Positions 47,796 to 64,000 of a DNA stretch of 64,000 nucleotides are shown here, in pieces. Location of the stretch: NCBI GenBank assembly GCA_964486045.1, contig CAZALK010000001.1, positions 648,242-712,241 of the forward strand, given 5' to 3'. The translations under genes and the position numbers were made by a program. The stretch's first letter is position 1. Each line of letters opens with the position of its first letter. The stretch comes from an uncultured archaeon. Lineage in GTDB: Archaea; Asgardarchaeota; Lokiarchaeia; Sigyniarchaeales; SOKP01. The notes under the pieces were generated by a model. The model worked only from the letters and a program-made list of their open reading frames with translations, did not search any database and was not told where the DNA came from.

Positions 47796-50700
47796 TTGAC
47801 TTACATTAAAAAAATATCCATGACTGGTTTCAAATCATTTGGAGACCGTACCGTAACAATAAAACTCTCAAGTGGTTTTACTTGCATAGTGGGGCCTAAC
47901 GGGGCTGGAAAATCCAATATTATTGATGCCTTGTGCTTCGCCTTAGGAAGATTAAGTAAGAAAACAATGAGAGCCAAAAGCCTGGAAGATTTGATTTTTG
48001 CTGGATCTCGTGGTAAGAATCCTTCCCAAAGAGCATCAGTCACGATGTTTTTTGATAACTCTGATAATATTTTTCCAGGAGGTACTGATACTTTTGAGAT
48101 TACTCGTACAATAAAAAGAGGAGGGGGCGGTGGTTACAAGATGAATGGAACAAAGTCTACCCGCCAACAAATTCTGAATGCATTAGCCGCCGCAAATATT
48201 GATCCTGATGGCAGCAATCAATTTGTCTTACAAGGAAAGATCGTTGAGTTAACTCATATGAATGCTGAAAGACGAAGATTTTTCATTGAAGACCTTATAG
48301 GACTTCAAAAATACGATGAAATGAAAGATTCTACATTGAAAGAACTAGAAAAAGCAGAAAGAGATTTGGGGCAATTTGAAGCAATTTTCAATGAAGTATC
48401 GTCTCAACTTAAAAAAGTTGAAAAAGAGAAAAATGACGCGCTATTATGGAAGGAGTTTGATGAGCAAATAAACTCTTTAAATTCTCAGTTAATTGCATTA
48501 AAAATATTAAAATTGAGGGATGAAGAAGATGATTTGGAAAAGAAAATTGAATCTTCTTTAAAAATTACTGAAGAATTAAAGGAAAAAATTAATCGACAAG
48601 AATCTTTACTTACACAAGAATCACTTGTTATGGATAACATTCAAACAACAATAAACGAGAAGGAAAAGGAAAAAGAAGAAATAACTGAGGTTATTACTCA
48701 ACTAAAAACCAAAATTTCTTCCAACCAAACAACATCAAACATCGCTGAACAATCAATAGCAAAAGTGCATAAAGAAATAGAAAATCTAACAAAAATGCAA
48801 ATGAAACTCGAACAAGGTCAAACTATTGATATCTTAATGGAAGGTGTTGTATATGATATTAATGAATGCGAAAATAAAATCGAAGAAGCTAAGAAAGAAA
48901 TCGAGAAAAGACAACAAACCCAATCAGAGCTAGATTCTAAAATAAAAAATAATGAAGAAGAAAAATCATTATTCAATAGTGACATCTCAAAAATACGACA
49001 AGATATTTCATCAAATAATGCTCAAATTAAAGTGTTAAAGGATAACATCAAGAAGAATGAAGATAAGAAGGTTAAGTTAGAGGTTGAATTGAATAAACTA
49101 AAAAAAGACGCTGAAAGTATAGATGAAGCTATTGATGATGCAAAGAAGGTAGAAAAAGTAATAAGATCACAGATAAATAATTTAAAAACTCAACTCGTTG
49201 AGGAAAATCAGAAACAAAAAGATTTGGAGAAACAAATAAATAATTTTCAAGAAGCTAAAAATCAATTAAATACAAAATTGATAAATTTACAATCTAATCT
49301 ATCATCTCTTAATACAGAGATTAATATGAATAACGGGAGTATTCAAGATTTAAACACTAAGAAGACAGATATTGAAACAAAAATTCAGGAATTGAGTAAA
49401 GGTAAAGATACAGAGGTAGTAGTAAAAGAACTATTAAGTCAGAATGAGAAAGTAAATAAGGAAATAAATGAACAAAAAGGAAAATTAAAAAAAAAAAACT
49501 CAAACTATAAAAAAAATGAGCAAGCCCTAGAACTGCTAAAAGTGAAAAAAGAATCTTTTGGATCTGAACTTAATGATAATAAAGGAAAAATAGATACCCT
49601 AAGCACAGAAGTAAAAATATTTACAAAAGAATATACGAAACTTGAACGAGAAAAAAATAGCTTAGATTTACAGGTAAACACATTAAATAAAAATATTTTA
49701 AATATAGAAGATGAATTAGAGAAATTTAGTCGAAAAAAGGATAATGTCCAAGGACGCTTAGAAGACCTTTCAAAAGAGAAAGAAAATTTATTAAAGAAAG
49801 TAGAATCTTCCGAAATGGAATATGAGAAGAACGCTACAGATATTACTGGAATTCTACAGATATTAAATATGCTTACTCAAAACATTAATATCTCGGTTGA
49901 ATCCATTAAAGGTAATATACAACAATCTAATGCAGAGGCAATCGAGACATCTGCTGAAGATTTTAAAAAATATGTTTTGGATATTGTCGACATTATGAAA
50001 ACAGTTGAAGAACTTGGTAGTGAAACAGAACAAGTAACTGAAACGTCAATGATGCTCAAGTCTATTATGAAAACTCTAAAATTGTTCACTGATAATGCCG
50101 ATGGTACGATTTTTCAATTAATTGAGAAAGTTAAAGAATCAGCAGATGTAGAAATTCAATCTTCCACAATGACTTTTGATAATTTCGTTCAAGATCTCAT
50201 GGAAATCCTCGAAAATGTCTATATTTCTCTAAGAAAATTAACTATGTCGAAAAGTCAAGAATTATATAAACAATTGGAGGAAATATCTGAAAATATCAAC
50301 TCCCAAACTGGTGATTTTAATCTTATAGAAAAGAGATTAACAGAAATTAATATCCAAACAAAATTCTATACTGAAAATGCTTCATCAATTAATCGTAGAC
50401 TTGATGAAATCAACAAAAGGAATCTGGAATTAAATGAGAGAATTTCAAAATCAAATCAAGAAATAAATGTAAGAACTGGTGTTATAAACGAGAGGAAAAA
50501 GGAGAAAGAAAATATTGAGCAAGAAATACAAAAATTAGAGGGTATTAAAGAGACTTTTTGGGATGATATATCGAAAATCCAAGATAATATTGAGAAAAAA
50601 CAATTAGATTTAGAAAATTCAAGAGATAAATTGCACGAATTACATGGAATCCAAAATTTGTTTGAGAATATAGTGGAAATCGAAGAAAATATCCAAAAAC

Positions 50701-52250
50701 TAAATAGCATAATTGATGAAAAGAAAAATATAATCATTAATACACAAGAAATTATAGAAAAGTATCAAGAGGAACAAAATTCATTACAAAATGATATTGA
50801 TGCTCTCGCTTTAAAAAAAGATAATTTTTGGGAAATGACAAGTAGTATTCAGAAACAGATAGGAGATAGAAATAAAGAACTAGAAGAAGTCATGGATCGA
50901 TTGAGAGCACTTGAAAATGTTATGAGGACAATTAACACAATTGAAGACATAACAAATGAAAATGTTGAAGCAAAAGATAATATTGAAATTAGTCTAAAAC
51001 AAATAAATGAGTTTAATTCTCAAGTAGATGAAATACAAACTAAAGTAGATCAAACCCAAAAGATAGTAGATTCACTCAGAAATGAAAAAATTAAGGAATT
51101 AGAATCACAAAAGAGTGCCCAAAAAGAATTAAATAAAATTAATAAGGATTTACAAAAACACCAAAAAAAATTAAATGAGTTAAATAAAAATAAGGAAAGA
51201 GAGCAAAAAATTGTTGAATTGAATCAAGAGATAGTAGAGACTGAAAAGCAAATACGATCGGTATTAAAAGAATTGGAATCTTTTAGAGGTGAGTTGGATT
51301 CAGAAAGTGTGAAAAAAGATGCCAAACAAGATGAAATTGATAGATTAGCCAAAGAAAAGGATAATTCTTGGAAGAAACAGAAACAACATCAAAAAATGAT
51401 TTCTGATTTTAAGTCAGATCTTTCAATGGAAAATTCTAAGAAGAACAATTTTGAATCCAAAAAAATCATCTGCGCTGATCAAATAGAAACATACTTCCAA
51501 AGATCTAAGGAATATGGTTCTTTACCACCTGTTACTGAAGACCTCTCGGAAGGTGAATTGCAATCAGATATTGTTGAAGCAACAAATAATAAAAAAGTCC
51601 TTGAACCTGTTAATTTAAAGGCAATTGAACAATATGATGCAGTAAAGGAAAGATTTGATGAAATTGACATGCGTAGGCAAACAATTCAGAGAGAAAGGAA
51701 ATCAATTCTAGATGCTATAGATAAAATTGAGCTGGAAAAAACGCGTACATTCATGAAATCTTATCATGAAATAAATCGTGAATTTTCACGGGTATTTCAG
51801 AAATTATCTCCAGGAGGTTCAGCAAAAATGATACTAGATCGTCCCGATAAACCGTTTGAAGGAGGAATTAGTATAGAAGCGAGACCAAGAGGTAAAAAGA
51901 TTAGTTCACTTGAAATTTTAAGCGGTGGTGAAAAAACGCTCGTGGCTCTCTCATTTATCTTTGCCGTCCAGGAATTCTATCCCGCGCCTTTTTACGTTTT
52001 AGATGAGATCGATGCGGCTCTCGATGGTCCTAATGTACACAGAACGTCTGTGGTCATACAGGAATTTTCAAAACAAGCGCAATTCTTGGTTATTAGTCAT
52101 AGAGAGGAGAATATCGTAAATTCTGATAGAATTTATGGCGTCACTATGCAACAATCAGGCGTAACAGATATCTTTAGTGTCGATTTGGAGGAAGAAGCAA
52201 AACGGTTATTAGATCTTGAAGATATCGAGCCTACCATTGCAGAAAACTAA
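47796..52250 (+). CDS. smc: SMC ATPase, unusually long and with no recognisable hinge
   Basis: FKSF, GPNGAGKSNIIDA, LQG, PVN.KAI..Y, LSGGEK, LDEIDAALD, ISH, and long coiled coils. Confidence 0.92.
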   Translation: MTYIKKISMTGFKSFGDRTVTIKLSSGFTCIVGPNGAGKSNIIDALCFALGRLSKKTMRAKSLEDLIFAGSRGKNPSQRASVTMFFDNSDNIFPGGTDTFEITRTIKRGGGGGYKMNGTKSTRQQILNALAAANIDPDGSNQFVLQGKIVELTHMNAERRRFFIEDLIGLQKYDEMKDSTLKELEKAERDLGQFEAIFNEVSSQLKKVEKEKNDALLWKEFDEQINSLNSQLIALKILKLRDEEDDLEKKIESSLKITEELKEKINRQESLLTQESLVMDNIQTTINEKEKEKEEITEVITQLKTKISSNQTTSNIAEQSIAKVHKEIENLTKMQMKLEQGQTIDILMEGVVYDINECENKIEEAKKEIEKRQQTQSELDSKIKNNEEEKSLFNSDISKIRQDISSNNAQIKVLKDNIKKNEDKKVKLEVELNKLKKDAESIDEAIDDAKKVEKVIRSQINNLKTQLVEENQKQKDLEKQINNFQEAKNQLNTKLINLQSNLSSLNTEINMNNGSIQDLNTKKTDIETKIQELSKGKDTEVVVKELLSQNEKVNKEINEQKGKLKKKNSNYKKNEQALELLKVKKESFGSELNDNKGKIDTLSTEVKIFTKEYTKLEREKNSLDLQVNTLNKNILNIEDELEKFSRKKDNVQGRLEDLSKEKENLLKKVESSEMEYEKNATDITGILQILNMLTQNINISVESIKGNIQQSNAEAIETSAEDFKKYVLDIVDIMKTVEELGSETEQVTETSMMLKSIMKTLKLFTDNADGTIFQLIEKVKESADVEIQSSTMTFDNFVQDLMEILENVYISLRKLTMSKSQELYKQLEEISENINSQTGDFNLIEKRLTEINIQTKFYTENASSINRRLDEINKRNLELNERISKSNQEINVRTGVINERKKEKENIEQEIQKLEGIKETFWDDISKIQDNIEKKQLDLENSRDKLHELHGIQNLFENIVEIEENIQKLNSIIDEKKNIIINTQEIIEKYQEEQNSLQNDIDALALKKDNFWEMTSSIQKQIGDRNKELEEVMDRLRALENVMRTINTIEDITNENVEAKDNIEISLKQINEFNSQVDEIQTKVDQTQKIVDSLRNEKIKELESQKSAQKELNKINKDLQKHQKKLNELNKNKEREQKIVELNQEIVETEKQIRSVLKELESFRGELDSESVKKDAKQDEIDRLAKEKDNSWKKQKQHQKMISDFKSDLSMENSKKNNFESKKIICADQIETYFQRSKEYGSLPPVTEDLSEGELQSDIVEATNNKKVLEPVNLKAIEQYDAVKERFDEIDMRRQTIQRERKSILDAIDKIELEKTRTFMKSYHEINREFSRVFQKLSPGGSAKMILDRPDKPFEGGISIEARPRGKKISSLEILSGGEKTLVALSFIFAVQEFYPAPFYVLDEIDAALDGPNVHRTSVVIQEFSKQAQFLVISHREENIVNSDRIYGVTMQQSGVTDIFSVDLEEEAKRLLDLEDIEPTIAEN

Positions 52251-55300: not shown

Positions 55301-56702
55301 CAGTTGCTAACTCAAGATGCTTTACTTTTATTTTTATTTTTTTTGAGTTTTTCGTTGTTTTTTTTGTTTTCTTTTCCGATTTTTTAGGATGGTTTTGAGG
55401 TAATTTGTAGTCATATTTTGTATTAACTATATGACTATATTCATAATGTTTATAATCCCCAAGCTCCTCGGGATCTGTGATGACCTCAAGTTGCTTGATT
55501 TTCTCCGGTTTTTTTTTGGGAGTTTTTTGTGGTTTCTTTTTTTTTGTCTTCTTCTCTTGTTTTTGAGGTTTCTTATGAGAAAAAATATAGTCGTACTTTG
55601 TTCCAACTATATGACTATATTCATAATGTTTATAATCCCCAAGCTCCTCAGGATCAGTAATTAATTCTAGCTCTTTAGCCTTAATTCGCTTTTTTTTCTG
55701 TTCTCTCTTTTGGATTTGTTCAGGAACTAGCTCAGGTTCTTGTTTGGGAGACTGTTCAGATTCTTGCTCAGATATTAATTCAGGTTCTTGTTTAGGAGTC
55801 TGTTCAGATTCTGGGGATATTTCCCCTTGCTGTTGATCATACATTTTTTCAAGCAAATCTTCAAGAGGTATTAATTCTGGGTCTGGTTGATGAGGAACAG
55901 GCTCCCCATTATCAGGATTTATGAGCTCCAGTTCTTCAAGTTCTCTTTCAGCTTCTTGTTCGGGCTCATTTTCAGATTTTACCTCAGGAGTTTGAGCAAT
56001 TTCATTTTCTGCTGTTTGATCCGATTCGATCTCACGGTCTTCCTCTGTTTCATAATCTCTTTCTGGATAAGTTGGAATGCCCATTTCCTCTAAATCTCCA
56101 AACATTTCAGTAACTTTTTGGGGATCTGCAGGAGGCATAGGTTCACCATCGGGATAAACCAATTCCGGATCTTCTTCAGATTGTTCTGAATCTTGGTCAT
56201 GTTCGCTTTCAGATTCTTCCTCAGGTTCATGGTCAGTTTCTTGATCTGGTATTTGATCAGGTTCATTGTGAATCGTAATAGTAACAGTTCCAGAATGATT
56301 TGGGTTGAGATTTCCATCAGAGTCTGATCCTAGATCATCATTAGGTTTTTCTTCGTTTGGGTTGAAGCTCTCTTCCTCTGGAATCTCATCTGATTCATCT
56401 ACATTGGGATTAAAATCATCCTCATCTGGGATTTCATCTGACTCATCTACATTTGGATTAAAATCATCCTCATCCGGGATTTCATCTGACTCATCTACAT
56501 TTGGATTAAAATCATCCTCATCCGGGATTTCATCTGACTCATCTACATTGGGGTTGAAGGAATCTTCATCTAAGGTCTCATCGGATTTATCAGAAATCTT
56601 TCCTTCCTCAGCTTCATCAGGACTATCTCCACTTTTTAAGGAGTGAATAATTTCAGGTCTATCGGGTCCAATATCGGAATCTAAAAAATCTAGATCTGTC
56701 AA
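52317..56702 (-). CDS. Giant repeat protein with C-terminal Zn-ribbon repeats and PD-(D/E)XK/Vsr-like endonuclease
   Basis: Acidic tandem repeats and four LELITDP.E.G repeats. Five C..xH.(F/W)..C..C units flank SE..C..MELDG..LAFEYQG.QH. AGGTGA RBS before the TTG. Confidence 0.8.
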   Translation of the reverse strand: MTDLDFLDSDIGPDRPEIIHSLKSGDSPDEAEEGKISDKSDETLDEDSFNPNVDESDEIPDEDDFNPNVDESDEIPDEDDFNPNVDESDEIPDEDDFNPNVDESDEIPEEESFNPNEEKPNDDLGSDSDGNLNPNHSGTVTITIHNEPDQIPDQETDHEPEEESESEHDQDSEQSEEDPELVYPDGEPMPPADPQKVTEMFGDLEEMGIPTYPERDYETEEDREIESDQTAENEIAQTPEVKSENEPEQEAERELEELELINPDNGEPVPHQPDPELIPLEDLLEKMYDQQQGEISPESEQTPKQEPELISEQESEQSPKQEPELVPEQIQKREQKKKRIKAKELELITDPEELGDYKHYEYSHIVGTKYDYIFSHKKPQKQEKKTKKKKPQKTPKKKPEKIKQLEVITDPEELGDYKHYEYSHIVNTKYDYKLPQNHPKKSEKKTKKTTKNSKKIKIKVKHLELATDPGELGESKTANSQKKSEESVNKKETSEKSSQKKRPKRVISLELITDPKEFGESELIKKQAKKPAEKSEKKISSENKKVVKKIPSEKSNKKKDKLLKNEIQPQKPTSTSKIITQQRQKSNQKSQKNKEMKKELQQKYRQDTGKRPLYAKKETKEFLKWLEKQKNLAQKKKVKKEIEKSKENWEVLLENWIQQANEDDISGENKKELIDIIQKYRYYRLLYEKLIKLLNKANPTNDDIEIIENLSKKLEKMTNIQEEMFKNLSAFQTFYNNKIRWFKHEILAEKLRFTTHLTQKLKKLKETEKRGKNENLSLVSKDWKELLRHKLTSIEELSEESKSQLNQIIRKKDLTDKDIKIIASILKKLHINQLIGIFGDAFEKHTKNYVKWGWDYYEYIKKNMLVTYLNKQYSQSYVKEYDLFEEFLHYIHENQLIKQFITEFNKSGNWIKNFRPTKTFINFVKVKQTQLVNFSTDDKTNSIKDQIKVLLNFSDLIIKIRDNDILNKVIKTQILENPGKYNAYDIQEWLLLSDTSTRNQLNRILTKEEYQQYVRTQKHVSIDTVMKIAEKKGGKCHTKVLKNAKSKLHLECAEGHHFFTTYNSVVYSNTWCPDCHIYISETICRRFFEKLFKRPFPKSYPEWLTNENGNQMELDGNSKDLRLAFEYQGIQHRKKAFGMTDEELQKIMREDALKLKKCGENNVVLLQIPDDEIVPYDKMQEYIIKEYERISGKTLKNIPRYDYKEFIIHENEYAEKFRTYVKKKDGALITPYFSARKEVTLMCEKGHQWTTTPNSVYMGNWCSECAGNMKGTTVFFQKIGKMFNCDLISEYVNAKTLITYRCQKGHKFEKSPYWLKKDFKKIEILCPKCNRDVFAEKFQHFVRKRGGELVTQYSGRFKPITIKCNKNHKWNTTPGAVYQGRWCKICADENHPNKERLQTAKKELVQMIEFLKYKLLSEYVNNTKKVQITCQRQHQFTITPKYFKRLVNQNIEPCRKCRKGI
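55405..55665. repeat. Duplicated ~75-bp coding block at 180-bp spacing
   Basis: Encodes ITDPEELGDYKHYEYSHIV.TKYDY twice. Confidence 0.85.
56356..56571. repeat. 48-bp coding tandem repeat (~4.5 copies)
   Basis: Near-identical units at 56395, 56443 and 56491, with degenerate flanks. Encodes DESDEIPDEDDFNPNV. Confidence 0.95.
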
Positions 56703-56708
56703 AATTGA

Positions 56709-58709
56709 TCACCTGAATCGATTTGAATACTTATATTCAGGCGTTTTAACAACAAAAATTTCTTGATTACTTCCATTTATAATAAGCGCATAACGAGGAT
56801 TTTGGAGAATAAGGTACTCTTGAGTTTTTAGATTATTAGTAAATAGCTTGCTATCTAAATGGCTAAGGCTGAATAGTATTTTAAGGTTTGGTAAGCTTAA
56901 AGCACAACTAAATAACCGATGGGGGGTATTATCTGAAATGAAGAATGATAATCCTTTACTCCGAAACTCTCTTATTAAATTGTTAAATATTAATTCCAAT
57001 TGCTCTCGTGAGATAAAATCATCCGCATTAGGGTTTGTCGTGATTGGTAATTCTAATATTTGGTAGGCTTCTTCAATCACTATTATGTTTTGAAGTTTAC
57101 CTGCTTCCACATCAGGAATAAGGGTTTTGACCATTTGAAAAATCGCATTAGACAATAATCTTTTAACATAAATATCACACATGGATAAATCAATAAAAAT
57201 TGTTTTTCCATTTCTCCAATCATTAAACCATTTAGGGATATTGTTAATCTGTAATAATTCTAAGGTCTTCTTCAGAATAGGATCAGAGAGAAGGGAAGGA
57301 ATCCGATTTTGTAGAGCTCTTAGAATATAGGTCTGATATTTCTTATGATATGGGTGTTCTATGAAATATTTTTTCAACCCATTAAACAAAGTCTTTAATG
57401 ATCGTGGTAAAGATCCATTTACTTTTATGAAAGCTTTCATTACAACATACAATATCTTATCAGAAGGACTTCCAAGCCCAAGAGATGATGCCAAATACGT
57501 CGCAGTTTCTTGAAGTGACTTGTTTAAATATTCTCCTTCATAAAAATAACTTAAATGTAAATCTGAAGATCCATACTTAAGAATTTTATCGGTAGTATAG
57601 AATCCCTCTTGTTTACCTTTCCCCAGGTTCAAGATTAGAATCCCAATATCAGGAGCATTATTATAAAATTGATTGCAAATATGACCTAATAGATAAGTCT
57701 TTCCTGCACCCGTTTGACCTCCAATAAAAACACTATTTGCAAAATGAGTTGTCGGCAGAGATTTGATTATCTTAGTTTCTACTCCATTAACTACAATATT
57801 ACCAATTGAGATGGAATTCTTATCACTAATAGAGGAATAATTAATATTAACGAGAGGGGGACTATATGATTTTTGTAATGGTAAATCATCTGAGAAAGTG
57901 AAGTCAACCTCATCAGGGCTAATAAATGCCGGAACTCTCTCTTCAGGTAATTTGCCATAAATATAACAATAATAAGCGCCAGTATTTTGATTTTTATCAT
58001 TAATCCAAAAGACGTTAGAACTCATTATTTTTTCCCAAGTGTTAAGACGAGTTTTTTTAATGCAAGCACGCTCTCCTATTAAATTTCTTATACCCATAGT
58101 TAAATACTCCAATTTAGCCTCAAGTTGTACCGTCTTTAACTTATTATTATCAAGCTTATTATCTTGTATAATTCTAATAAAGATCTTGAGTTTATACATT
58201 TCAAATACAGAAACCTTGTCATATTTGTGAATATGAATTGAATCATCCTTTTGCCAGAATATATAGAATTGAAATACGTTAGTGTCCCGCATTTTAAATA
58301 ATTGGATAATCTTCTTGATGATATGAAATTTATCTCCCTTTAAAAATGGAATTCGAGGGAGAACTAGTTCATAAGTGGGGAATTCTTGTTTTAAAATAAA
58401 TAGACCAATTGGTAGAGCTGAGACTTCACCCGAAAGTCCAAGGAATCTTTCTTCTAAATTCATAAGGAACGAATACCCCCTTTTTAGGGCTTTTGATTCG
58501 GTTTCAGCATACATAATAAAGATGAATGAAAAGGTCTTGTTCAGTGTGAGTTCCAAACCATATACAGTTTGGTCTAGAAAAGGATCAAAAAGCCACGACA
58601 TGTCGATTTTAGCACCGTTGTGAGTTCTAGGGTTTACGAATTCTTGCGTTTCTAATTTAGTTGGGATTTGCGTAATTTTTACTCGTGCTTGCCAAAATTT
58701 TGTTTCCAT
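56709..58709 (-). CDS. HerA/VirB4/TrwB-like (FtsK-HerA superfamily) ATPase
   Basis: Walker A GQTGAGKT, Walker B IVIEEA, R-finger FRSKG. Start reassigned to ATG 58709, which has a GAGGGG RBS and avoids the overlap. Confidence 0.85.
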   Translation of the reverse strand: METKFWQARVKITQIPTKLETQEFVNPRTHNGAKIDMSWLFDPFLDQTVYGLELTLNKTFSFIFIMYAETESKALKRGYSFLMNLEERFLGLSGEVSALPIGLFILKQEFPTYELVLPRIPFLKGDKFHIIKKIIQLFKMRDTNVFQFYIFWQKDDSIHIHKYDKVSVFEMYKLKIFIRIIQDNKLDNNKLKTVQLEAKLEYLTMGIRNLIGERACIKKTRLNTWEKIMSSNVFWINDKNQNTGAYYCYIYGKLPEERVPAFISPDEVDFTFSDDLPLQKSYSPPLVNINYSSISDKNSISIGNIVVNGVETKIIKSLPTTHFANSVFIGGQTGAGKTYLLGHICNQFYNNAPDIGILILNLGKGKQEGFYTTDKILKYGSSDLHLSYFYEGEYLNKSLQETATYLASSLGLGSPSDKILYVVMKAFIKVNGSLPRSLKTLFNGLKKYFIEHPYHKKYQTYILRALQNRIPSLLSDPILKKTLELLQINNIPKWFNDWRNGKTIFIDLSMCDIYVKRLLSNAIFQMVKTLIPDVEAGKLQNIIVIEEAYQILELPITTNPNADDFISREQLELIFNNLIREFRSKGLSFFISDNTPHRLFSCALSLPNLKILFSLSHLDSKLFTNNLKTQEYLILQNPRYALIINGSNQEIFVVKTPEYKYSNRFR

Positions 58710-58722
58710 CAAATTTTCCCCT

Positions 58723-59484
58723 CTATTTGTTTGTATTGTAATATGAATGTCTTTCTTTTTCAGGATTATGTCTACGGCGTGAATATCTTTTAAAATTATT
58801 TCTATTTGATAGCTTTTCTGCAGCATATATATTTTTATAGAACAAATTACCAACGAAATGAAATCCGTACTTAAACACAAAATAAAATCCTGTAACTATT
58901 AAATATATAAGGAATTCATGAAACCCTTGTAAATAAAATACAGTAACACTTATAAACGTTAATAGAATTGATAATCCAATTAATAAAATCTGATACATTG
59001 AATGATTGAAATTATTTAGAAATGTTTTGGGAATAATTAAGAAATCCGTAAATGAGGGAGCCGCAGAAAGTGAAATAGAAATCATTATAAAAATAAAAAC
59101 AAAGAAAAATACTGGTTCTACTTGGGAATATAGAAGAGTTTCAAGTAAAAAGAAAAAAAGCCAAAATAAGATATAAAGCGGAGCTAACCCTATCAGAACT
59201 GCTTGTAAAAATGAAATTCTATGTGCTTGAACCTCTACTTCTCCATAGTATCCAAGCCTTCCTTCTTCCTTAAAATCTAATTTCTTAACAAAAGTTACAT
59301 TTTCTATAGGAGAACGAGTTATTATACACATAAGATAGTGGCATAATTCATGGATGACAATTCCTGCCACTGCTAAAACCTTAATAATGTCAGAAAATGG
59401 TGGAGGCACATATTTAAAAGCTAGATAAGAAAATATCACTGAAAATATCATAAACCCGATGATATATGGTATTTCTTCAAACAT
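58723..59484 (-). CDS. Membrane zinc metallopeptidase (M50/M50B-like)
   Basis: HELCH within a TM region, GLAPL and PS..D motifs, multi-TM. Confidence 0.8.
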   Translation of the reverse strand: MFEEIPYIIGFMIFSVIFSYLAFKYVPPPFSDIIKVLAVAGIVIHELCHYLMCIITRSPIENVTFVKKLDFKEEGRLGYYGEVEVQAHRISFLQAVLIGLAPLYILFWLFFFLLETLLYSQVEPVFFFVFIFIMISISLSAAPSFTDFLIIPKTFLNNFNHSMYQILLIGLSILLTFISVTVFYLQGFHEFLIYLIVTGFYFVFKYGFHFVGNLFYKNIYAAEKLSNRNNFKRYSRRRHNPEKERHSYYNTNK

Positions 59485-60516
59485 TTCAAATCATTTTTTT
59501 GAAAATTATTATAGTTAAAAGAAAATACAACGTGAGTATATAAAGAAAAATTTAGAATTTTCTTTCTCTAAAAAAAACAAAATGACAATACAAAATTGGA
59601 ACAAAAATAATAATTATATTAAAAATTCTTTGAAAAAAAAATAAGGATTTGAGAAAATTTGATTCTAAGGGAATAATAAACTAAACTCTTAAAAGTATGG
59701 TTAGTATTTCATAATTTTATTTATATTCTGCATAATGCTGGATTATATTATTCCATAGAACTTTTAGGCATGTATAAATTTTCTTTAAAATTGCTCCTAT
59801 TTTATTCCTGATTTTATGCATGTGATATATAAATGAATTTTTAGTGTAATTCCAGTAGTTCTTATTGCTTTTATAGAGTAGTCGTAACTGTTTTAAATTT
59901 AATGAAGTTTTTGAAAAATAAATTTTTTTTTCATAAATAGAAGTCTCAAAACTTCCAATAAATTGATAAGGATCAGATTACATAAAATTAAGCCATATTT
60001 TGAGTTGTCCTTCTTAAACCTTGGATTAAACTTTGAGAATTTAAATATTTTTATTGACGATTTTTAAAAACCAGAGATATATCGCTTATTATCTTGGTAA
60101 TCCTAACCTTAATTGTCATATAAATGATGTATATTCTAAAAACCCGCGAAAGGATATTAATTCAAAAAGACTTATTGCAGAGATAATAAAAAATATTGAT
60201 AGCAGTGGTATTTATGCATTAATTTCAAGAATAAAAATGGATATAAATAGACCAATGGATGATATAATAAATCCACAATACTAGAATATCGTGAAACCAT
60301 ATTATTTTAAATTGATGTATAAACTATTTGAAACACCATCTAGCCCATAAACATAATATCGGAATAGAATATTATAATTATCCTTATTGTGAATTTACCA
60401 CGAAACACAAGAGTAGTATCCCCCGTTATATTAGATTAAATCACCCCAATGATAAGGATTTTAAAATTCAAATTTATAAATTTCAATAATCATATATTAG
60501 ATAGAGGTGAATAATT

Positions 60517-62789: not shown

Positions 62790-64000
62790 ATGAAGTTACA
62801 TCAAAATAAAAACAATTTGACATATAGTTATAATACAATTGATATTAAAGAAGCACTTACAAAATTGTCAAACCTTTTAATACTATTTCCATATCATCCT
62901 AGGAAATCTAAAATAGAGAATATAGGATGGTTAACTCCTCAAAAATTATTTCGTAAAAGTGATATCCCAAAAAGACCCTTTTGTGGCATTATTGAAACAT
63001 GTCATAGAAAAGGTTTTCCAGTGTTTAGAGATTGGCTTAATTATATTGAAAATAAAAGTCGAGATAAAAAAAACGTCATAGAAATTAGGAAAAAATTGGT
63101 AAATCATTTAAATGAGTGTATAAAAAATATTGGGTATCAAGAAGAAAATTCAAGAATAATTCTCAATAATCAATTTAAGGAGTTGTATATATGGATTAAA
63201 ATAATGTATGATAAAATCAACTATCTTAAGAATAAAGGGTGTTGGAGTTCAGAATTCTTACAGCAATTAAGAAGAAGAAAAGAAATTTGGGATGCTTACA
63301 AGCAATATCGCAAGATCAAAGCCAAGAAGAGGAGAAAAAAAGTTGATCAATATAATCAAAAAATGGAAGAATTAACGAAAGATGATAAAATTGATGCCTA
63401 TCTTAATAAATTATTCCCAATGAGTTATGACCAATATAAGATAGAAAGAAAACTTCCCAAAAGTTCTTCAGAAAAGGAAATACTAAGATGTAAATTAGTA
63501 AGAACTGAGTATAATTCATATGTTGCAAATTCTCTCTATGATGAGAAGCTTCCCTTAGAAATAATATTTACAAAAATTTTTCATTTCAAACATAACTTAA
63601 AAGAATTTAATATCTTAACTCCACAAGAATTTGATAATTTTATTAATGAAATATTACAATTAATGGGCTATGATTGGGTATCTTGTATTAATGGCGAATT
63701 AATGCTTATAGGATATAGTATAGAAGAAAAAGAGGAAAAAGAAGTCTTTAGATATTTAAAGAAATATCGAAAAGTAATCGAGAATCTTGAAAAAGCCAAA
63801 CAACACATATTGGAAGCAGACTGGAATAGTGTCCCTTTATATTGTTGTAAGGCTATTGAGCACTTTTATAAAAATTTATTAGGACAAAAAAAAGAATTTG
63901 AAAAATACTCAATATCTAGATTAACTCAAAAATTAATAGAGGAAAAGAATATAAATTCTCTCTTTAAAAATTCATCTATTGATATTAACGACGGAATAAA
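62790..64000 (+). CDS. AbiJ-like/HEPN-type protein, 3' truncated by window edge (absent from ORF track)
   Basis: Manual translation is open from ATG 62790 to the window end (>400 aa). The distal part VIENLEKAKQHILEADWNSVPLYCCKAIEHFYK resembles a HEPN N-terminal helix pair. Confidence 0.6.
   Translation, partial: MKLHQNKNNLTYSYNTIDIKEALTKLSNLLILFPYHPRKSKIENIGWLTPQKLFRKSDIPKRPFCGIIETCHRKGFPVFRDWLNYIENKSRDKKNVIEIRKKLVNHLNECIKNIGYQEENSRIILNNQFKELYIWIKIMYDKINYLKNKGCWSSEFLQQLRRRKEIWDAYKQYRKIKAKKRRKKVDQYNQKMEELTKDDKIDAYLNKLFPMSYDQYKIERKLPKSSSEKEILRCKLVRTEYNSYVANSLYDEKLPLEIIFTKIFHFKHNLKEFNILTPQEFDNFINEILQLMGYDWVSCINGELMLIGYSIEEKEEKEVFRYLKKYRKVIENLEKAKQHILEADWNSVPLYCCKAIEHFYKNLLGQKKEFEKYSISRLTQKLIEEKNINSLFKNSSIDINDGI

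Follow-up and report, generated by a model that had tools for sequence, protein, structure and literature searches.

The stretch of DNA analysed here (hereafter referred to as the window) is 64,000 nucleotides long, spans positions 648,242 to 712,241 of contig CAZALK010000001.1 (assembly GCA_964486045.1) and comes from an uncultured archaeon of the Asgard order Sigyniarchaeales (Lokiarchaeia). Its smc gene, an open reading frame (ORF) at 47796-52250 on the plus strand with a TTG start and an intact frame of 1484 codons, encodes an SMC protein of 1484 residues. An earlier note on this DNA, made from the sequence alone, had proposed that the protein combines the heads of a condensin-type Smc with a helical, internally duplicated midpoint that is neither a hinge nor a zinc hook; the window positions to which it referred, 49818-50290, correspond to residues 675-831. 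The gene is made up of the following parts.

47796-52250, plus strand: smc, encoding a long-armed, hinge-less Smc (ORF translation, TIGR02168 score, 172 homologues)
47796-48332, plus strand: N-terminal head half, residues 1-179 (motifs; SMC_N, AAA_23 and AAA_29; match to 1xew_X)
48333-49832, plus strand: N-terminal arm strand, residues 180-679 (AlphaFold helix, repeats, collinearity with canonical Smc)
Residues 307-403, 404-501 and 502-598: tandem repeats of about 97 residues in the N-arm strand (in-register alignments)
49833-50255, plus strand: apex domain, modelled as an acidic four-helix bundle, residues 680-820 (AlphaFold, conservation, profile comparison)
49833-50006, plus strand: apex repeat unit 1, residues 680-737 (end of the N-arm helix plus helix 2)
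50046-50219, plus strand: apex repeat unit 2, residues 751-808 (helix 3 plus helix 4, running on into the C-arm)
50256-51695, plus strand: C-terminal arm strand, residues 821-1300 (AlphaFold helix, repeats, collinearity)
Residues 921-1010, 1011-1100 and 1101-1190: tandem repeats of about 90 residues in the C-arm strand
51696-52250, plus strand: C-terminal head half, residues 1301-1484 (motifs; match to 5xei)
52030-52250, plus strand: last 72 codons and stop codon of smc, of which a diverged relic copy lies on contig C28 (80% nucleotide identity)

All ABC motifs could be read in the translation of the two head halves: Walker A (G33-S40), the Q-loop (Q146), the signature LSGGEK (1375-1380), Walker B (1399-1404), the D-loop and the H-loop (H1435). 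The heads look ATPase-competent. The Pfam model SMC_N matched the protein in a split fashion, over both ends (1.1e-43), and TIGR02168 gave 602.5 bits, above its cut-off of 567.35, in 4-5 pieces that skip the middle. Residues 2-183 matched the Pyrococcus Smc head 1xew_X with 158 bits, and the Pyrococcus Smc construct 5xei was matched with 394 bits in total, residues 1254-1471 being among the matched part. Since two hinge-bearing Asgard Smc proteins score a comparable 422 and 452 bits with 5xei, the heads are those of an ordinary condensin-type Smc, as the earlier note had judged both of their halves to be.

The best PDB relatives of the heads were the Smc heads of Pyrococcus and B. subtilis and eukaryotic SMC1-4, which argues against membership of some other SMC-like family (Rad50/SbcC, ASRP/ClsN, RecN or a defence SMC) that has heads resembling those of Smc. 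Weak NCBIfam matches do point in that direction, with 125 bits for the ASRP model NF045487 (C-terminal head only), 80-86 bits for Rad50 (39-86 bits over the Rad50 models) and 58 bits for arcadin-4; the RecN model TIGR00634 reached 29.5 bits. These scores, however, are far below cut-offs of 300 to 1087 bits (300 for NF045487, 700-1087 for the Rad50 models and 407.85 for TIGR00634). The genome has a separate SMC_N/Rad50-like ORF of 906 residues on contig C6, and the absence of a CxxC hook and the ScpAB operon, both described below, likewise speak against another family, which we consider very improbable. The general Pfam and NCBIfam scans listed no match to MukB, MksB or JetC; no comparison aimed at these proteins was made.

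A canonical Smc would have its hinge at the midpoint. The Pfam model SMC_hinge (PF06470) had no match in the protein, even at E<=1, and was found in none of the 120 homologues listed. No hinge chain in the PDB was matched by sequence, whereas a Thor-like Asgard Smc matched the Pyrococcus hinge 4rsj with 114 bits. In a profile-profile comparison between the family profile of residues 660-860 and a hinge profile of 13 Asgard Smc proteins (1180-1206 residues), the apex gave a probability of 0.07% (E 0.71), as against 92% (E 5e-7) for the positive control, the drifted hinge of the other SMC paralogue of this genome. The protein has only four cysteines (30, 47, 358 and 1226) and no CxxC anywhere in its 1484 residues, which rules out a zinc hook at the apex. 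Both absences were as the earlier note had read them.

In place of a hinge of about 170 residues, the protein has about 470 residues (about 515-984), consisting of added coiled coil on each arm strand and an all-helical domain of about 145 residues (residues ~680-820). AlphaFold models of residues 560-960 (predicted local distance difference test score, pLDDT, 83) and of residues 660-860 (pLDDT 80.6; predicted template-modelling score 0.61) were wholly helical. The helices in the shorter model are 661-709, 713-741, 749-781 and 784-859; the N-arm helix extends to residue 709 in the models, and the last helix continues into the C-arm. In the models, the apex is accordingly a bundle of four helices in up-down order, put together from two copies of a helical hairpin. 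When family profiles of the two units, residues 680-737 and 751-808, were aligned with hhalign, they matched over 58 columns with a probability of 97.6% and an E value of 3.1e-12. Because either half reached only E values of at least 0.02 against 16 coiled-coil arm segments, the duplication is real and the apex is unlike coiled coil in composition. For the twofold repeat in a middle that looked all-helical, the earlier note had quoted two 27-mers, residues 711-737 and 782-808; the repeat proved to be longer than that, and the models agree with the note on its helical nature.

The apex is also the most conserved part of the long Smc outside the heads. Among 104 full-length sequences aligned, residues 691-720 were 94% identical and residues 781-840 were 83-86% identical, as compared with 46-81% per 30-residue window, mostly 50-70%, in the arms. 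The conserved positions include polar ones on the surface, which suggests an interface beyond the core of the bundle. The domain contains 4 Gly and 0 Pro and has a net charge of -11 here and of -12 to -19 in six relatives. The hinge regions of 14 Asgard SMC proteins, by comparison, contain 11-18 Gly and have a net charge of -1 to +12 in 13 cases and of -8 in the remaining one, from family f24.

These properties bear on the possibility that the apex is a very diverged hinge missed by the sequence models. Hinges can drift far, as that of the second, divergent SMC paralogue of the genome, at 27-32 bits, illustrates. It was precisely this drifted hinge, however, that the profile comparison still recovered, while the apex remained at a probability of 0.07%. 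Neither AlphaFold model contains a single strand, the apex has far fewer glycines than hinges have, and it is acidic whereas 13 of the 14 hinges checked are neutral to basic. A diverged hinge was therefore rejected on the Pfam search, the PDB sequence search, the profile comparison with its positive control and the two all-helical models, and we regard it as extremely unlikely. The Smc-type heads, the ScpAB operon in the relatives and an autonomous all-helical domain without profile similarity to hinges support the conclusion that this is a condensin-type Smc in which the hinge has been replaced, not merely diverged.

Searches for structural relatives of the apex returned only coiled-coil hairpins or generic four-helix bundles, and no specific relative could be named. 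Foldseek found nothing at E<=0.001 with the 201-residue apex model and only antiparallel coiled-coil hairpins (the MukB elbow, chemoreceptors, dynein stalks and a piece of the Pyrococcus Smc arm) with the 401-residue model; the ESM Atlas had no named cluster for the apex. VIA-align superimposed the apex model on a designed four-helix bundle with a Z score of 15.2 and a root-mean-square deviation of 2.1 A over 138 residues. The same up-down topology is seen in long natural four-helix bundles (the vinculin tail, FAT, the talin rod and 4HB sensor domains; Z 11-13.5, deviations of 2-3.5 A over 120-154 residues), several of which are protein-binding or dimerising modules. Because the four-helix fold is common and the identity to these proteins is only 4-12%, we take the matches as evidence of topology and not of kinship; the apex further differs from them in that its first and last helices continue into the SMC arms.

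By sequence, the domain is rare. Only 31 of 1.84 billion representative proteins searched matched the apex. These were all either long Smc proteins or non-SMC proteins of ~920-1180 residues in which the 147-position apex profile matches end to end, twice in tandem, at residues ~68-209 and 325-463. As the full profile thus recurs, paired, outside SMC proteins, the apex is an autonomous, portable domain. The double-module proteins (P0141-P0149; L020:3997-7122, minus strand, in genome G213) have the apex pair near the N-terminus, followed by an unassigned region and coiled coil, and one of them, P0145, ends in a Lys-rich, H1-like tail. They occurred in four of the seven genomes sampled of the family that is sister to that of the window; the window's family gave one weak match only. 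Their genomic context was uninformative.

The arms of the protein are unusually long. A canonical hinge-bearing Smc from the family of the window is collinear, through its residues 2-443 and 687-1190, with residues 1-441 and 984-1468 of the long form, so that each arm strand exceeds the canonical one by ~165 residues and the extra length adjoins the apex. The arm amounts to ~505 residues (~75 nm if fully coiled), as compared with ~340 in the canonical protein. In the AlphaFold model of residues 560-960, which covers the apex-proximal third of the arm only, the N-strand helix 561-709 and the C-strand helix 820-959 have pLDDT >90. Within the arms, the N-strand repeats 307-403, 404-501 and 502-598 aligned in full register with E values of 4.6e-11 and 1.2e-11, as did the C-strand repeats 921-1010 and 1011-1100 (E 3.4e-13). 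Arbitrary segments of canonical coiled-coil arms reach E values of 1e-5 to 1e-7, and for this reason only the in-register pairs at E 1e-11 to 1e-13 were counted. These stand 4-6 orders of magnitude above the coiled-coil background, which is supportive but not conclusive evidence of repetition in the arms. A complete relative of 1296 residues with the same apex, P0140, lacks ~97 residues on each strand and is one repeat shorter. Burmann et al. described modes of 423 and 515 residues for natural Smc arm lengths and a functional period of ~91 residues (PMC5344682); arms of about 410 and 505 residues are near these modes, and units of 97 and 90 residues are near this period.

We then considered the partners of the protein. 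The genes smc, scpA and scpB are contiguous in genomes G213 (one 4.36-Mb contig), G147 and G165, and no conserved gene neighbours of the long smc other than scpAB were found. From this linkage, ScpA and ScpB are the likely partners of the long Smc. The earlier note had reported no scpA or scpB in the window, and there is none within its 64 kb; a search of the genome for a kleisin nevertheless located ScpA (weak Pfam match), together with ScpB (117 bits), on contig C28. The two are orthologues of the long-Smc-linked pair, with 40% and 54% identity, respectively. Directly upstream of this scpA lies a 72-codon relic of the smc 3' end (C28:17179-17399; L015:9180-9400) with 80% DNA identity to 52030-52250, and we conclude from its position that smc, scpA and scpB were once contiguous here. 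Compared with the smc tail of the closest relative, the relic has 96% identity, the value also found for the neighbouring region, and the tail now on the gene has 90%, which suggests that the 3' end of smc has been swapped. Contig C28 also carries, ~6 kb beyond scpB and running to the contig end, an inverted copy (C28:25247-28444; 94.6% nucleotide identity) of window positions 56435-59623. It spans a 253-residue gene, a HerA-like ATPase and the start of a giant nuclease gene, the genes that follow smc in the window, and it may be the reason why smc and scpAB are now on separate contigs. A 723-residue ORF on C28 that had been considered as a sibling of the ATPase in the window proved to be unrelated; the true second copy is the one at the other end of the contig.

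The swapped 3' end, together with a bin contamination of 7.8%, might raise the suspicion of an assembly artefact or a pseudogene. The frame of 1484 codons is, however, intact, the apex is under strong constraint, and the 172 homologues come from many studies, with lengths of mostly 1474-1487 residues among the 120 matches listed; within its order, the long form is kept at 1474-1497 residues. We give this explanation practically no weight.

The linked partners are themselves modified. The long-Smc-linked ScpA proteins (L015:9366-10415, L018:9656-10756, L021:5933-6922, L034:8190-9212 and L035:2840-3988) have an N-terminal extension of 85-132 residues before the FW motif, where canonical Asgard ScpA proteins have 7-20 residues (six proteins in which the motif could be placed). 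In G213 and G089 the extension is rich in Lys and has a net charge of +29; in this genome it includes a HeH/Rho_N-like motif, and in G147 it begins with a Cys-rich stretch. On the linked ScpB proteins, the N-terminal extensions are long and acidic. We regard the ScpA extension as a lead for putative relocated DNA contacts.

Other features of the locus and the genome are as follows. The window has a G+C content of ~30%, and the genes around smc include one for a Gtr1/RagA-like GTPase and one for an Orc1/Cdc6-like protein with a weak match, in keeping with an Asgard origin. At the window end, a 403-residue ORF (62790-63998, plus strand) has an 87% identical paralogue on contig C25 (L016:2130-3422, minus strand), located 2.5 kb from the other SMC paralogue of the genome. 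The latter (L016:5874-9341, minus strand) is a divergent protein of 1155 residues with a weak hinge (27-32 bits), flanked by ORFs of 216 and 421 residues without Pfam match; it is possibly an SMC5/6-related archaeal type with its putative kleisin and kite.

To see how widely the long form is distributed, we sampled 301 genomes of the phylum. The apex was present in 60 of the 68 genomes of the window's family and in all 7 of the sister family in the same order. Outside the order there were three isolated matches, probably due to contamination or chance, and the other Asgard families mostly have a Smc of ~1190-1220 residues with a strong hinge. Family f24 (21/21) has a Smc of ~1203 residues (checked in two genomes), with hinge E values of about 1e-5 to 1e-2 where a hinge was detected (17/21). 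For families f16 (0/11), f22 (0/7) and f7 (1/28), there was no match to the Smc C-terminal head at E<=1e-20 beyond these counts, and hinge matches were none or weak.

Some members of the order have both types of protein. In four genera of the window's family and in three genera of its sister family, the long form is accompanied by a hinge-bearing Smc of 1195-1206 residues, and in the head tree these hinge-bearing copies group with other hinge-bearing Asgard Smc proteins. It is therefore conceivable that the long form is a specialised extra paralogue and that the housekeeping Smc is the hinge-bearing protein of ~1200 residues, its function having been lost or moved in the genus studied here. 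The grouping in the tree has only 57% support, however, and none of the 57 genomes sampled from five genera of the window's family gave a strong hinge match. One of them is the present genome, which is 99% complete and has no hinge-bearing condensin-type Smc; nor was a hinge-bearing Smc found in the sister-family genus g11 (0/2 sampled). The head phylogeny could not serve as an arbiter of which is the vertical Smc of the order, as it was poorly supported and both types are equally near other Asgard Smc proteins. Because head identities do not discriminate between them, we base the assignment of orthology on the operon and on ScpB. The operon smc-scpA-scpB is retained with the long form, and the ScpB encoded in it shares 34-46% identity with the ScpB proteins linked to Smc in loci of eight other Asgard families. 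For the ScpB-like protein next to the hinge-bearing Smc of the order, identity to those ScpB proteins is only 19-28%. From operon structure and ScpB identity we conclude, with moderate confidence, that the long form is the vertical Smc-ScpAB of the order and not a stray paralogue; the status of an extra paralogue appears quite unlikely. The hinge-bearing copy (L019:6177-10393 in G213; also L022 and L023) has a hinge of 111 bits and its own, very diverged ScpB-like gene; present in some genera of the order and missing in others, it may have arisen by an old duplication or by transfer.

Compared with known systems, the protein is closest in plan to prokaryotic Smc-ScpAB (Pyrococcus, B. subtilis; TIGR02168/TIGR02169), with which it shares the ABC head, the antiparallel coiled coil and the smc-scpA-scpB operon. 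It differs from them in having no alpha/beta hinge, arms of ~505 instead of ~340 residues and a modelled acidic four-helix bundle at the apex, and in the long N-terminal extensions of the linked ScpA and ScpB. Rad50/SbcC and the ASRP proteins (ClsN, Sph) are likewise SMC-superfamily ATPases with a hinge-less coiled-coil tip; they have a zinc hook, diverged heads and other partners, in contrast to the Smc heads, ScpAB and missing CxxC of the Loki form. The earlier note had cited ClsN and Sph as hinge-less relatives with divergent heads. Their heads are indeed diverged, but the two are not simply hinge-less, as they carry a zinc-hook motif (PMC9389158). A cluster of SMC proteins without hinge and CxxC has been reported from marine Actinobacteria (Sussfeld et al. 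2025, PMC12153180); these are bacterial, are described as highly divergent and have an unknown context, whereas the Loki form, compared with them by description only, has conserved heads, scpAB linkage and a defined replacement domain. In the literature searched, outside of which many journals lie, no report of an Asgard Smc without a hinge turned up. Asgard-inclusive studies of SMC evolution (bioRxiv 10.1101/2024.01.07.573240; PMC8665677) count paralogues, and their main texts mention the hinge only generally, without hinge replacement.

The nearest parallel is an engineered one. In B. subtilis Smc(Zh), the Pyrococcus Rad50 zinc hook stands in the place of the hinge (Burmann et al. 2017, PMC5344682), which makes it, like the Loki form, a true Smc with an unrelated apex module. 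Its functionality demonstrates that the hinge is replaceable by an unrelated dimeriser, and depended on arm length with a period of about 91 residues (PMC5344682). The Loki form differs from it in being natural and in that its module is a metal-free helical bundle, not a CxxC hook, through which dimerisation is presumed.

What, then, might the apex do? In an SMC-kleisin motor, the two arms have to be connected at their distal ends, and arm contacts are reported to contribute to the dimerisation of hinge-less B. subtilis Smc (PMC5526789). The parts found here are an apparently ATPase-competent Smc-type head, very long arms, a hinge-less helical apex and dedicated kleisin and kite genes. In the mechanism that we propose, the apex bundle would take over the constitutive dimerisation by the hinge, through bundle-to-bundle pairing or hairpin swapping, and DNA would be handled only at the head and kleisin end, as the apex is acidic. 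For the same reason, DNA binding by the apex itself is unlikely. We lean, by a small measure, towards a constitutive dimer contact in which the two bundles pair homotypically or exchange hairpins. The reasons are that no other part of the protein outside the heads is as conserved as the apex, that polar residues on its surface are conserved as well, and that other proteins contain it as two tandem copies. Of the replaced dimerisation module on a condensin-type Smc that the earlier note had envisaged, the replacement of the hinge is thus upheld by the heads, the ScpAB operon and the helical domain, while dimerisation is something that we only infer.

The main rival holds that the two Smc subunits are kept together by arm contacts, head engagement and the kleisin, and that the bundle serves as a docking knob, either for another protein (such as a loader, an anchor or a basic chromatin protein) or, by folding back, for the heads or the kleisin of the complex itself. 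The conserved polar surface residues indicate a protein-protein interface, with a partner that they do not specify. The presence of the same domain in non-SMC proteins, one of them with a Lys-rich, H1-like tail, is consistent with docking, as is the N-terminal extension of the linked ScpA (85-132 residues, net +29 in two genomes), to which an acidic knob could bind. The fold search recalls dynein stalks, the tip domain of which is a binding knob, and arm contacts alone were reported to help hinge-less B. subtilis Smc to dimerise (PMC5526789). The module proteins, however, were found in only four of seven genomes of one family, with one weak match in the window's family, no conserved neighbour besides scpAB is seen, and the tandem arrangement of the module in them agrees with homotypic pairing no less well than with docking. 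We consider docking as the role of the apex to be somewhat unlikely.

Several results weigh against our overall interpretation. TIGR02169 gave 603.1 bits, below its cut-off of 729.4, and did so in 4-5 pieces that skip the middle. The AlphaFold models were built on shallow alignments (32 and 41 sequences), and the region from helix 2 to helix 3 has pLDDT values of 52-79. VIA-align comes with the warning that Z scores below about 13 are common for helical bundles, and the bundle matches are generic. The heads of both Smc types of the order are 44% identical to those of other Asgard Smc proteins; the head tree, which was confined to Asgard sequences, has 38-62% support at its deep nodes and a very long outgroup branch. 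In this genome, smc no longer adjoins scpAB. With these points taken into account, the balance of the evidence still tips slightly towards the long protein being the rebuilt Smc subunit of the Smc-ScpAB condensin of one Loki-type Asgard order.

A hinge is taken, to our knowledge, as one of the parts by which every true SMC protein is defined, and proposals for its role include binding of DNA, an entry gate for DNA and a bypass gate. The full proposition that an Asgard order runs its vertical Smc-ScpAB hinge-free, in many genera as its sole condensin-type SMC, with a new metal-free helical bundle as dimerisation domain and with arms lengthened by whole superhelical periods, is tentative, its chances being a little short of even. 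If it is true, the hinge fold, its DNA binding and its gating would be shown in nature to be dispensable for SMC function, and the apex would be a novel, portable module for pairing that a chromatin-associated non-SMC protein also contains. A natural, conserved Smc-ScpAB without a hinge would serve as a test of which hinge functions are dispensable; with arms ~50% longer and units of 97 and 90 residues that match the engineered period of ~91 residues, it would also test the tuning of arm length. The clade in which this form occurs belongs to the Asgard archaea, the closest prokaryotic relatives of eukaryotes.

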